DNA of 64,000 bases from a virus (lineage: Duplodnaviria > Caudoviricetes), in the IMG/VR virus record IMGVR_UViG_3300037249_001405, positions 128,001 through 192,000 of that record. One strand, given 5' to 3'. This document shows positions 4,550 through 60,788 of the stretch, piece by piece. The notes beneath the pieces are model-generated. The model was given only the letters and a program-made list of their open reading frames with translations. It was not told the origin of the DNA and did not search any database. Position 1 is the first letter of the stretch; each line of letters begins with the position of its first letter. Made by a program: the position numbers and the translations under genes.

Positions 4550-4754
4550 AATTGTAGTTTTTTATGGTTTGTATTTATTTTATTTGTGTTCATATATAAG
4601 GGTATCAGGCATTTATGGACGTATTTTTCATATATCCAAAATATGGCCATTTTTACCCTTATTTTTGTTTTTTTTTATATATATTTTCGTTCATATATAA
4701 GGCTATTAAGCATCTATAGGTGTAATTTTCATATACTTATAGATGCTTAATATT

Positions 4755-25167: not shown

Positions 25168-26706
25168 TTAATTGTTTTTCTCCATTCCCTCTTTATCCTT
25201 CCAATTAATGGCAGGATAATATCTTTCTATTTCATTTACTGTATTACCAAAGATCACATCTTCTATCTCGAGTGTATCTTTGTATGCCATAGGTGACTCA
25301 TCGATGGTCTTTTTTGTTACTGATGTAGTCACAATACCCTCCATCTCTTTCTCGAATGAAGACATGGAGAACTTAAGAATTTCATTAATCTCGTCATCTG
25401 AGAGATTACCAAAATCCTTTTCATACTTAGCCAATATGGTTAAGTTCTCATCGGAGAAGTCCAAATCAGATTCGTACTCCTCCTTTAATTTGAGGTATTC
25501 TTGGAGTTGTTCTGCCAACTCCAACCTCCTGTCGGCTTCCTTTCTGGACATGATACGTCCGGCACCATGTGGCGCCGAATTACCCCATTCAGGATTACCT
25601 AGACCTTCAGCTATTACAACACCATCCTTCATTGAGAACGGGATAATAACTATTTCGCCCTGTCTTGCTCTGATAGAAGACTTCCTCAATGTTCTATCCT
25701 CAAGATCAACGAAATTATGTGTAGTAAATATAGTATCAACAACGCGGACACTATACTTACTTAAAATATCCGTTATGATCTTTTGAACAGTTATGTGATT
25801 GTACCTTGCATAAAGCTGTGCAAAGCACATATCCTGGAGATAACCTTTCATATTATCTCCCTTCAGATAACCATTCATGAATCCTTCTTCAAGCTTCTCG
25901 AACTCTGCCGAGAGATACTTGTTTAATTCATCCTTAAAGAACTTCATGTCCTTTCCTTCGGCCTTATATTTAGCCTTGAAAGAATCAGTAAGTTCCTTTT
26001 CTTTCTCTTTCCTTTCTTTCTTAGAAAGAGGGTTATTTGAAATGTTCTTCCAGTAAGTAGCTACAGCAAGACCAAATCTTCTTGATCCAAAGTGAAGGAA
26101 GAAAGCAGCTTTCTTCTTATCCTTTGTCAAATCATACTCCAGAAAGTGGTTTCCGCCACCTACTGTTCCGAGTGATTTCCAAAAGACACCTGGATCAAAG
26201 TTATTAATACGTTTAAGAAACGCATTAATCCAGTCTTCCGATACACGTACAGGAAGATCACCTAACATTTCAGGCCAAAGTTGCCTGTATTTGTTAAATT
26301 CCTTTGTTATGAATTTACAAAATTCATCAGTTTTCACCTTTGAATTTTCATGAAGGTGAAATCCCATAGGTACCTGTTGAGATACCTTATGTTCAAACTC
26401 GATAAGCTTGTCTTCAGAGACAGGTTTATCGAGAATCATACCAGATACAGTACAACCTATATCTACTCCGATGTGGAGTGGGTTAATATAGTTGCCAATA
26501 GTTGCAGAAAGGCCACAAGGACCTGCTGCACCTACGTGAGCATCTGCCATAAGATAAACCGATTGGCCCTCAAAGGCTTTCGAGTTTATGATGTCGTCAA
26601 CCTGTTCCAGCACACCTGGGTCATAGGTCCTTATATACGCTTTACAAGTAGCGTATTTTCCCTTTTTTACGAGAGGGAGGGGACCATCGTAATATAAATT
26701 TGCCAT
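25168..26706 (-). CDS. rtcB: RtcB family RNA 2',3'-cyclic phosphate/5'-OH ligase
   Basis: DAH.G, GVDIGC, LGTVGGGNHF.E, HFGSR, HN, HGAGR, DESP.AYK. Confidence 0.95.
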   Translation of the reverse strand: MANLYYDGPLPLVKKGKYATCKAYIRTYDPGVLEQVDDIINSKAFEGQSVYLMADAHVGAAGPCGLSATIGNYINPLHIGVDIGCTVSGMILDKPVSEDKLIEFEHKVSQQVPMGFHLHENSKVKTDEFCKFITKEFNKYRQLWPEMLGDLPVRVSEDWINAFLKRINNFDPGVFWKSLGTVGGGNHFLEYDLTKDKKKAAFFLHFGSRRFGLAVATYWKNISNNPLSKKERKEKEKELTDSFKAKYKAEGKDMKFFKDELNKYLSAEFEKLEEGFMNGYLKGDNMKGYLQDMCFAQLYARYNHITVQKIITDILSKYSVRVVDTIFTTHNFVDLEDRTLRKSSIRARQGEIVIIPFSMKDGVVIAEGLGNPEWGNSAPHGAGRIMSRKEADRRLELAEQLQEYLKLKEEYESDLDFSDENLTILAKYEKDFGNLSDDEINEILKFSMSSFEKEMEGIVTTSVTKKTIDESPMAYKDTLEIEDVIFGNTVNEIERYYPAINWKDKEGMEKNN

Positions 26707-42057: not shown

Positions 42058-42180
42058 TTATTTAATATAATAAATTTTGTTAATAATCACGAAAGAATTA
42101 AAGCCGAAAATTAAAAGATAGATGGATTATAACTCCACCTATCTTTTATTCTTTCATATATAAGGGTTTCAGACGACTGA

Positions 42181-46579: not shown

Positions 46580-47590
46580 TTATGACAATTTCTGGTAGTC
46601 GTGAGCGTCCTGTGAAGAGGCGAAGACATTAATCTTGTCATCGACAAGAAACATCTTCATCTCAGCGTTGAGGTCTTCATTATAGCAGGATCCAGACCAC
46701 TCCTGGTATACACCGACTGTGCAACCATTATGTGTTCCGGCCGCCATGAAGAACACGACGTTACCATTGAGAATAGTATAGTACTTTTCTCCGAATACCA
46801 TGCTATTCTTGTCAAGAACAAGGCTATCCTTGTCCACCTTGGAAAGCCTTTCAGCTTCCTTGGCTTCATAGGCCTTGATCCTTTTCTGACGCTCTGCCTC
46901 TAAGGCCTCATCCTCAGCGCGCTTTGCAGCGGCGCGTTTGGCTTGTATGGCCGACCAAGCGTCATTTGATAATTTCCTTAACTCATCGAAATTACCTTCA
47001 TTCACCTGTGCGGCGAATTTCTCAGCAATTTCTTTTGAATTAAAGAATATGCACGGCTTAGAGTAGTCCTCCAAGAAGTACACACCCTCACCGTTGGTGA
47101 AGATATTATCCTTGCGAATGTACTCATCAGTGCAGTATGTTGCATTTCCGGATGCAATATGATCTACGGATGTGCAACGAACGCAGTCATAAGCCTTGGT
47201 AGGCTCCACAACCACGGGTTTTTTATTATCCCTGCGGGAGAGATAATAAAAGTCTCCTTCGAGAGAGTATTCCTTCTCCTCGAAGTAATTGGATGCTCGA
47301 TCTGCCCAACGAAGAAGTTGAGCCCTAGAAAACATCCTCTTGTGATTTGCGCGGGCATCCTCCGGCTTTTGATAGCCAAAGTTGTCACAGTCGCAAGTCA
47401 CTGCGAATCCTTTTGGACGATTCTTGTAGATATCATCCACGAAGGATCTGAAATCAGCCTCGTGCTGTTCGCGGCTGATTGCTTCCATTTTACGATCCGC
47501 ACGGATGTAAAACGGAAAAGGACGATTTTCTTTTTCGAAGAAAATCGGAAACATCCTGTGTTCTACAGGACTAACCATCGTTACTTTCAT
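46580..47590 (-). CDS. hypothetical protein
   Basis: 336 aa, GC-richer codons. Confidence 0.8.
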   Translation of the reverse strand: MKVTMVSPVEHRMFPIFFEKENRPFPFYIRADRKMEAISREQHEADFRSFVDDIYKNRPKGFAVTCDCDNFGYQKPEDARANHKRMFSRAQLLRWADRASNYFEEKEYSLEGDFYYLSRRDNKKPVVVEPTKAYDCVRCTSVDHIASGNATYCTDEYIRKDNIFTNGEGVYFLEDYSKPCIFFNSKEIAEKFAAQVNEGNFDELRKLSNDAWSAIQAKRAAAKRAEDEALEAERQKRIKAYEAKEAERLSKVDKDSLVLDKNSMVFGEKYYTILNGNVVFFMAAGTHNGCTVGVYQEWSGSCYNEDLNAEMKMFLVDDKINVFASSQDAHDYQKLS

Positions 47591-47674
47591 AACGCAAACT
47601 TCTTATTAAACTGCCATTTCTGACAGACCCCCTACAGAATACTAACACTTGGAGGTTTTAATTTTATTTTTAAA

Positions 47675-48580
47675 TAAAAAAAAATGGGTCGCTTTGCAAC
47701 TGCTGCAACAGTATCGACCCACTGCCCTACCTTACGTCCACCACGTTAATTGCAGTTTCGTGGTGAGCCTGTAAGGTACAGTTCGAGGTAAAATCTAAAA
47801 ACCCTCGCATATATCTTGATTGCTTAGCAACCGAAGTTGCTTTTGTAGCCGTATTTTACCGAAGTATGGGACAGTCCTACCAACCCTACAATCAAGATAT
47901 ATTTTTAGTGAGTTACCCTAACTCCTGCACCCCGTGCAGTGTGTTAGTATGTTTTACGTTGCCCGCTCTCGACAACAACCCCCCTTTCACATTTAGGACT
48001 GGGGCTAATCCCGCTTTCATGACAAGAATTAAACTTTCTCAATATTGAGGTTTGTTCTCTTGCCACTATTGCAGTGGAGGTCTATCTTTTTACGAAAGAC
48101 AGACAAAAAACGTTTTCCTAAAAATATTTGCAAACGACCCAAGAAAGGCATTTCAGCCAATCAAAGTTTGGTGCGCCGACCAAGTGGGGGGACCCACTGA
48201 GGGACTCGAACTCCTCTACACCTTACACGTTTACAATATTTCCGAGGAGAATTATAGGTGGTTTAACCCATTTTAAAACCACTTTTATCTACTCAGATTT
48301 ATCCGCGCTTTACGCGGCCTTACTTTTCGGGGCTATAATTCTCTAGGAAAAACAGGCCTATGTTACGTACTCCTCACCTGAATTCCGGTATTTTCGACTT
48401 ACGAACAACCTCTTATATAAGAGGTAACCGGTAACCATTTCTTCCTCATGGACAAACTATCTAGTTTCTACCAGCAATATCCGTTTTCCTCTACTCGTAA
48501 TAACCAAATGTTTGGAAAGAACTCCTTTTTCGCCAACGGAAGCGTTAACTAGTTCTTTTTAAGCGTTTAAATTATATTTT
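47675..48580 (-). ncRNA. large (~0.9 kb) structured non-coding RNA
   Basis: no credible ORF; promoter motif at 48580-48600; more than 15 helices incl. two C(UUCG)G loops and G.U pairs on - strand; terminal hairpin + U-tract at 47675-47721. Confidence 0.75.
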
Positions 48581-48619
48581 ACTACATTTAAGGGTTTCAG
48601 AATTTCAAATAAGGTATTT

Positions 48620-49177
48620 TCATTCTGGCAATTTTACGAGAAAAATATGAAAAGTTACCTCAGGTCTAGTAAGAGCAAAGAACCAATCTTTGAAATCAGG
48701 TCTGTGATTTTGTTTTTCTTCTTTTTCCTCTACAATAAACCCTTCTTCTTTCAATATTTTCATTCTATCCTCTAGCATCTCATCTGAAATAATAATCGCC
48801 TGAGTAAGATTCCAATCAGTAATATCTAAATCTACCTTAGTAGTCCGGAGCAAATTATATCCACGAAGATACATTCTACCCTTTTCATAGAAAAAATTTG
48901 CTGTATTGATAAAGTCATCAACAGTAAGGTTTAAATTATACATTGTGGTTCCTTTATCGCGAACGTATTTATCTAGTAAATCCCCAATGGGTAGATTATG
49001 TAACTCTCTCAATAGAATAATTCGTCTATTACCTCTAAGATCGTATATCTTAGCCTCATGTTCGTCTTTCTGTCTTATAATCTTTCCTATATAATCTAAA
49101 AACAATTTTCTAGGTTGATGAATATGAAACTCATCCTCTTTTTCCTTAAGTTCTTTCTTTATTTCTTCTGCTAACAT
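48620..49177 (-). CDS. hypothetical protein
   Basis: start MLAEE at 49177 preferred. Confidence 0.7.
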   Translation of the reverse strand: MLAEEIKKELKEKEDEFHIHQPRKLFLDYIGKIIRQKDEHEAKIYDLRGNRRIILLRELHNLPIGDLLDKYVRDKGTTMYNLNLTVDDFINTANFFYEKGRMYLRGYNLLRTTKVDLDITDWNLTQAIIISDEMLEDRMKILKEEGFIVEEKEEKQNHRPDFKDWFFALTRPEVTFHIFLVKLPE

Positions 49178-49293
49178 AATATTTTTGTGTTTATTAATTA
49201 TACTCAATGATTAGATTAATAGAAGATTAAACGTGAGATTTTAATAATTTAAAACTCTAATAAATAAAGTTTAACTAGATAAAAACATTAATT

Positions 49294-60622: not shown

Positions 60623-60788
60623 ATTTGATATAGTTTTTTGTTAATAATCATGAAAAATAAAGAAGGGAATATAAACTTTAATCGTTCATATTCCCTTCTT
60701 ATATAAAGGTTTTAGCTGGTTAGATATGCATAATCTAGAGAACCCTTAAATCTTTAGTATTGAATATAAATTATAATTAACAAAAAAA

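Follow-up and report, generated by a model that had tools for sequence, protein, structure and literature searches.

Does the 1029-nt gap between two protein-coding genes of a rumen phage (47591-48619) harbor a gene for a structured RNA and, if so, of which class? The gap lies in the window analyzed here, a stretch of 64,000 nt that corresponds to positions 128,001-192,000 of a 210,316-bp IMG/VR virus record with a GC content of 33.8% and a CheckV completeness of 56%. The record is a fragment of the genome of an uncultivated jumbo phage from rumen samples, and the contigs of its relatives stem from rumen assemblies of cattle, sheep, and goat (STEW19, Ga0247610/611, and Ga0310694). The genes in the window include those for an Mre11/Rad50-like fusion protein, an NAD-dependent ligase, RtcB, and a topoisomerase subunit, while most of the others were assigned to no family. 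To our knowledge, the large ornate RNAs of phages, namely GOLLD and ROOL, are few and have no known function. We consider it rather likely that the region 47676-48565 is an accessory gene for a separately transcribed, trans-acting, and modular structured non-coding RNA (ncRNA) of ~890 nt, which would belong to an uncatalogued class.

The gap is bounded by two minus-strand open reading frames (ORFs), 48620-49207 (195 aa) and 46580-47590 (336 aa), and its GC content is 0.40 (rising to 0.44) against 0.337 for the window. The earlier note on this DNA had described ~900 nt with no credible ORF, and we agree with this description: each of the six frames is interrupted by 11-28 stop codons, and no conserved reading frame was found across the four variants of the RNA described below, which are separated from each other by 1-nt indels. 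All three types of stop codon occur in five of the six frames, and TAA and TAG in the sixth. As every frame combines TAA with one or two further stop types, a single recoding opens no frame in the gap. A protein gene read through an alternative genetic code was considered and rejected on account of the multiple stop types in each frame, and no hidden small ORF in the gap was accepted after a search.

The features of the locus are the following (positions in the window).

48571..48600, minus strand: promoter-like site P1 (CTGAAA, 18-nt spacer, TATAAT), containing the phage motif CTGAAACCCTTAAATGT
48566..48572, minus strand: direct repeat ATTTAAA (7 nt), left copy, flanking the cassette
47676..48565, minus strand: predicted RNA of ~890 nt, starting just past the TATAAT box and ending with the U-tract of the terminator
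48352..48565, minus strand: 5' domain, the constant core of every RNA-bearing variant
48425-48408, minus strand: hairpin ACCUCUUA/UAAGAGGU, coordinates confirmed
48247..48343, minus strand: branch with an 11-bp stem, GAGAAUUAUAG/CUAUAAUUCUC, carrying four short hairpins
47909..48246, minus strand: central domain, missing in L017 and L020/21/22 and present in L023/24/25
48170..48222, minus strand: T-loop module, with a GGUGU/GCACC closing helix, a UUCGAGU-loop hairpin, an AGUGGG/CCCACU hairpin, and a GG-containing single strand
48104-48080, minus strand: hairpin GUCUGUCUUU/AAAGAUAGAC, coordinates confirmed
47809..47902, minus strand: 14-bp helix enclosing two C(UUCG)G hairpins, the enclosed sequence being variable
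47726..47808, minus strand: 3' domain, with a hairpin CGAGG/CCUCG and a long hairpin UACCUUAC/GUAAGGUA that includes CACCACG/CGUGGUG
47676..47722, minus strand: hairpin resembling an intrinsic terminator, in which GGGUCG ... CGACCC enclose a smaller UUGCA/UGCAA hairpin, with A and nine U behind it
47669-47675: direct repeat ATTTAAA (7 nt), right copy, flanking the cassette
47591..47661, minus strand: promoter-like P2 and the leader of the 336-aa gene (TTAAAACCTCC AAGTGTTAGTATTCTGTAGGGGG ...), outside the RNA and resembling P1

P1 (CTGAAA-N18-TATAAT) scores 10/12 as a sigma-70-type site. Its motif, CTGAAACCCTTA-AT, recurs before several genes of the same genome, and relatives of the motif precede at least five other genes of the 210-kb record. 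The copies of CT(G/A)AAAC(C/T)CTTATATATG are located at 4592-4608, 42156-42172, and 60699-60715 on the minus strand of the window and at genome positions 56017 and 58044 on the plus strand; they lie 50-100 nt upstream of genes, and behind several of them a hairpin and a U-tract were found. This motif probably represents a promoter class of the phage's own. P1 is 94-98% identical in the RNA-bearing relatives and was kept even in a relative (L014) in which the RNA is absent. The earlier note had credited the RNA with its own promoter; a promoter-like site is indeed in place, but it lies outside the cassette affected by the indel and survives at the empty site of L014. We infer that P1 functions as a promoter, and its geometry would place the start of the RNA at ~48564-48575.

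At the opposite end, GGGUCG (47720-47715) pairs with CGACCC (47691-47686) and the hairpin is followed by A and nine U, so that the reading of this end as a hairpin plus a U-tract was borne out. The terminator is kept in L017 through two changes from U-A to U.G. L017 also bears ~75 extra nucleotides after the RNA terminator (L017:1651-1725), for which the window has no equivalent; a C10 stretch is found in this segment along with a CCCC.../GGGG hairpin and a second hairpin, a small one with a U-tract. In place of the pair of ATTTAAA repeats flanking the cassette, the empty site of L014 has a single ATTTAAG. The repeat at the borders would fit either a deletion by microhomology or a target-site duplication.

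Homologues of the RNA, which the earlier note had proposed to collect, do exist in relatives of the phage, as reduced forms. The relatives were found via the flanking proteins (59-92% identity), together with one metagenome contig found via a 20-mer (L020). Among the phages of which the flanks are 84-92% identical, five states of the locus were compared.

State A, this window: 5' domain, central domain including the 84-nt branch, 14-bp-helix domain, 3' domain, and terminator
State B, L017 and L020 = L021 = L022: the central ~440 nt absent
State C, L023 = L024 = L025: 5' and central domains, the stem of the branch bearing a short loop in place of the 84-nt tip
State D, L014: 48566-47669 (898 nt) absent, P1 abutting the leader of the 336-aa gene
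State E, L026 and L027: neither the RNA nor the 336-aa gene

The deletion in state C extends from just past the 14-bp-helix domain into the 336-aa gene, and the 3' end of the RNA is lost with it. In L023 and L024, the 336-aa gene is reduced to a C-terminal ORF of 105 aa (L023:4782-5099), and the locus is a deletion hot spot among the close relatives. As P1 survives at the empty site of L014, loss of the RNA in L014 appears likelier than gain elsewhere. Since close relatives lack the RNA wholly or partly, it is dispensable in nature. The variants amount to only four distinct sequences, all from one subclade of rumen phages. Neither blastn nor nhmmer detected a paralogue of the RNA in the phage's own 210 kb, and blastn found no match to it in 50,697 GenBank phage records. 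A search of viral contigs with the 336-aa protein recovered no related locus, and one with the 648-aa and 944-aa proteins recovered nothing but distantly related phages (39-45% identity), which lacked synteny and had no DNA that matched the RNA. Exact scans with conserved stretches of 19-32 nt gave no match in viral contigs and only chance matches in genome contigs. A goat-rumen contig of Bacteroidaceae, which emerged from an exact-motif scan, proved unrelated and was rejected.

The six helices named in the earlier note were all located in the window where it had placed them, and the variants allow us to see how these and other helices change. In the branch, GAGAAUUAUAG (48343-48333) pairs with CUAUAAUUCUC (48257-48247), and in L023 the GAGAAU/AUUCUC stem is retained and bears a short loop instead of the 84-nt tip with its four hairpins. 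In the 14-bp helix, AUAUAUCUUGAUUG (47902-47889) pairs with CAAUCAAGAUAUAU (47822-47809), and L017, L021, and L023 maintain this helix despite a changed sequence (CUUGAUUG/CAAUCAAG versus UAUCAAUG/CAUUGAUG), while CCGCAU/AUGCGG of a hairpin inside it changes to CCGCAC/GUGCGG. The G.U pair in the hairpin at 48080-48104 was claimed to work on the minus strand only, and L023 has A-U at this position, which fits minus-strand pairing only. The stem of the T-loop hairpin changes from GAGG/CCUC to GCAG/CUGC in L023, amounting to two compensatory pairs. In the 5' domain, there is one compensatory pair, and a small hairpin, CCAAA-CA-UUUGG, is present or absent among the variants. The pairs in the 3' domain (47726-47808), of which the long hairpin spans 47778-47728, are invariant across the variants and hence silent on covariation. 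Altogether, the indels swap or shorten the tips of helices while the bases of stems persist, and the contents of the 14-bp helix are exchanged; in the alignments, the indels of the predicted RNA behave as in structured RNAs.

The same tendency was examined with RNAalifold. One of the 53 predicted pairs was kept through a double change in the 5' domain (four sequences), four of 103 in the central domain (two sequences), and six of 68 in the 3' alignment including the 14-bp helix (three sequences). Thus, 11 predicted pairs keep pairing through two-sided changes, with only 2-4 distinct sequences per domain and with structures fitted to the same few sequences that were used for the counts. A further 13 pairs of the central domain changed on one side, all of them wobble-compatible on the minus strand, and none was broken. 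When the partners in the central domain were slid by 1-3 columns as a control, no double change was found and pairing was 40-51%. In a weak test that took the minimum free energy (MFE) fold of a single sequence as the structure, changes kept 11 and broke eight pairs in the central domain, and kept none and broke 10 in the 5' domain. Taken together, the local helices appear well supported on these few sequences, and the global fold does not.

The MFE of the full-length sequence gave a z of -5.0 for the minus strand and -7.4 for the plus strand (20 shuffles each). For the alignments with shuffled columns, z was -4.7 (sense) and -1.9 (antisense) in the central domain, -6.4 (sense) and -6.8 (antisense) in the 3' domain, and -0.9/-1.7 in the 5' domain, which is no better than the shuffles. 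The difference between sense and antisense in the central domain settles the strand as minus. The conserved 5' core may work through its sequence or through non-nested contacts.

The degree of conservation differs among the domains. The 5' domain is 96-97% identical to those of L017, L021, and L023, and the 3' domain is ~98% identical to those of L017 and L021. The central domain is 87.7% identical to that of L023, and the 14-bp-helix domain is ~77-80% identical over the part that can be aligned. Identity in the flanking genes amounts to 62-86% for third and 84-96% for second codon positions. As the identities in the 5' and 3' domains exceed those at the flanking codon positions, these two modules of the RNA are more constrained than the adjacent protein-coding positions. 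The high identity could stem partly from recent recombinational exchange.

The plasticity of the locus invites another explanation, namely that the cassette is a functionless insertion, either selfish or in decay, for example the relic of a mobile element or of an intron, or a gene that has eroded, and that its high identity reflects recent spread. The clean presence or absence of the cassette with the 7-nt direct repeat at its borders, the several different deletions in the relatives, and the loss or truncation of the neighboring gene in some of them are all expected from such an insertion. However, the cassette is not conserved evenly: between the same two phages, identity is 96.6% in the 5' domain and 87.7% in the central domain, and a simple recent transfer of the whole cassette fails to explain this. 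In addition, indels and substitutions preserve the helices, neither terminal inverted repeats nor a residual reading frame was found, and no intron or ribozyme model matched the cassette although a group I intron was found elsewhere in the genome. We thus regard a decaying insertion as unlikely.

If the locus is an accessory ncRNA gene as we prefer, transcription would start at P1, just downstream of the 195-aa gene. The minus-strand transcript would pass through the 5' core, the central domain with the T-loop module, and the 3' domain, and would stop at the intrinsic terminator, shortly before P2 of the 336-aa gene. The folded RNA is then expected to act in trans, most likely as a scaffold or decoy during infection, by analogy only with GOLLD and ROOL, for which such a role is suspected. 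Both of these RNAs are phage-borne and non-essential (PMC12286853). Transcription, the ends of the RNA, its action in trans, and any role as a scaffold, as a decoy, or in assembly are all put forward here as predictions. The modules of the RNA could be lost singly, and the T-loop/closed-acceptor module may present a surface like the tRNA elbow to tRNA-binding factors.

The position of the RNA raises a second alternative, in which it serves the 336-aa gene as a long structured leader or attenuator and would be a cis-acting sensor, with the gene reached from P1 only by read-through of the terminator. P1, the RNA, and the gene follow one another on one strand, the terminator being 85 nt before the start codon, and P1 is directly before the leader of the 336-aa gene in L014. 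Moreover, the apical loop of the 3' hairpin, CUGCAA, is complementary to UUGCAG within the terminator, which likewise favors this reading. Nevertheless, the 336-aa gene has a promoter-like leader, P2, of its own. The P2 leader (TAAAACCYCCGAGTGTTAGTATTCTGTAGGGGG...) is nearly invariant in L014, L015, L016, L018, and L019, including relatives with the protein only 60-70% identical; in those distant relatives, the RNA is never present and the P2 leader is kept. The leader is more conserved than the gene behind it, and two hairpins occur in it, CCYCC ... GGGGG and CUGUC/GGCAG. As P2 is deeply conserved and belongs to the 336-aa gene, the RNA is a separate unit between P1 and P2. Furthermore, the gene is intact with or without the RNA, L023 retains the RNA next to a truncated copy of the gene, and L014, L015, L016, and L019 have the gene and not the RNA. 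Rfam gave no match to a riboswitch or T-box. A role as a leader acting in cis is therefore improbable in our view. The 336-aa protein itself belongs to no Pfam or PHROG family and has no counterpart in the protein atlas, and its AlphaFold model (pLDDT of 73) matched no PDB entry.

To which class would a separate ncRNA then belong? Rfam 15 gave no match over the whole window at the gathering score, and at E<=10 it gave nothing beyond chance on 1.7 kb around the RNA, on the 481-nt central domain, or on the short variant of L017. Among the families named as candidates in the earlier note, GOLLD, ROOL, OLE, HEARO, group I and II introns, tmRNA, and RNase P all gave no match. As the same search detected a GOLLD-like RNA, a group I intron, and a tRNA array elsewhere in the genome, the negative result is meaningful. 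For group I introns (RF00028), the insertion site is also outside genes, between the promoter and the leader, and for group II introns, there is no ORF inside the RNA. The RNA was not described in any paper that our literature searches turned up. Large ornate phage RNAs of unassigned function are a known kind of molecule, and on the model searches the predicted RNA of 47676-48565 falls outside the catalogued families.

The other RNA loci of the genome were located as follows. The GOLLD-like RNA is at L004:365-797 on the minus strand (genome 119864-120296), ~7.7 kb before the start of the window, and sits in an ORF-free gap of 809 nt with a GC content of 0.40; it matches RF02032 over the full span of the model with 88.2 bits (E of 3e-22), below the gathering score of 150. 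The group I intron is at L002:236-477 (genome 87735-87976), matching RF00028 above the gathering score with 62.5 bits, and its 1061-nt gap, with a GC content of 0.43, is followed by two tRNA genes. A second ORF-free gap, L003:3200-3945 (genome ~96503-97244), lies between the tRNA array and another tRNA; it has no Rfam match at E<=0.1 and no sequence likeness to the RNA of 47676-48565.

GOLLD is phage-encoded, exceeds 800 nt, and is ornate, with a conserved part beside a variable part and, at times, embedded tRNA-related elements (PMC12286853). ROOL is of rumen origin, is encoded by phages or prophages, and is ~600 nt long with many hairpins and non-essential (PMC12286853; PMC5737381). Both were recently shown to form RNA-only cages (PMC12286853). 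The RNA described here resembles GOLLD in being large, phage-encoded, and composed of a conserved part beside a variable part, and resembles ROOL in its rumen phage origin, its many hairpins, and its dispensability. Could it be a very divergent member of either family that the Rfam models missed? The shared setting in a rumen phage, the size of 0.6-0.9 kb with many hairpins, the juxtaposition of a variable and a conserved part, which has been described for GOLLD (PMC12286853), and the GOLLD-like RNA in the same genome are in line with this idea. On the other hand, neither the GOLLD model (RF02032, which represents the conserved 3' region; gathering score or E<=10) nor the ROOL model (RF03087; E<=10, in the RNA, in the central domain alone, and in L017) matched, even when only 481-1701 nt were searched. 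In contrast, the GOLLD model scores 88 bits on the separate locus of the same genome, to which the RNA shows no likeness by nhmmer and blastn. Unlike GOLLD, the RNA is not beside the tRNA array, and its constant part is at the 5' end with the 3' part conserved as well. We thus regard membership in GOLLD or ROOL as very unlikely.

A likeness of another sort was found in the T-loop module (48170-48222). The module may be arranged like a tRNA elbow without the D arm, and neither ARAGORN nor Rfam predicted a tRNA or tmRNA there or in the window. As in the tRNA-like domain of YrlA, a T-loop hairpin, a closed acceptor-like hairpin, and a GG-containing strand lie inside a closing helix, and the phage also encodes RtcB, as in the setting of bacterial Y RNAs. 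In contrast to YrlA, there is no Rfam match to YrlA or Y RNA, no Ro/TROVE protein (PF05731) was found in the 210-kb record (~56% complete), and the module, which makes up only a small portion of a far larger RNA, is missing in the short variants. The module may bind factors that recognize tRNA or may only make an internal tertiary contact.

Phage morons are independent cassettes of promoter, gene, and terminator that are present in one phage and absent from its relatives. The ncRNA gene proposed here is likewise self-contained between two genes, has its own terminator, and is absent from a close relative at the exact site, but its predicted cargo is a non-coding RNA instead of a protein gene, and the promoter is retained at the empty site.

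The suggestion that the RNA is a new class is plausible, being consistent with the lack of an Rfam 15 match, the non-coding nature, the homologues, and the compensatory changes, and falls short of being established. With four sequences from one subclade, we rate a new class as promising but unproven. More tentatively, the RNA might represent a third giant ornate RNA class of phages, uncatalogued and carried by the same jumbo phage as the GOLLD-like RNA, with exchangeable modules and a central mimic of the D-arm-less tRNA elbow that engages tRNA-binding factors of the host or phage or a higher-order RNA assembly; we hold this fuller picture to be possible and rather doubtful.

Stop-codon recoding occurs in some large phages, yet a hidden protein-coding gene (through an alternative genetic code or frameshifts) is effectively refuted by the neighboring genes, which are open under the standard code, by the number and types of the stops in every frame, and by the 1-nt indels that leave no frame conserved between the variants.

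If the accessory ncRNA gene is real, a second large RNA unrelated to the GOLLD-like one would suggest that RNAs of this kind form a toolkit of phages that extends beyond two families. The natural variants mark the borders of the modules without mutagenesis and are ready-made constructs for probing, assembly, and cryo-EM. Should the locus turn out to be untranscribed or devoid of covariation, it would exemplify a plastic hot spot between genes.

Two further genes of these phages touch on RNA metabolism. RtcB, an RNA ligase, is encoded at 25168-26706 on the minus strand of the window, and a protein like the CCA-adding enzyme (PolyA_pol and HD domains) is encoded in a relative at L015:7158-8855, directly after the counterpart of the 336-aa gene in L015. 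Both genes, along with the tRNA array, suggest a heavy investment in tRNA and RNA repair.
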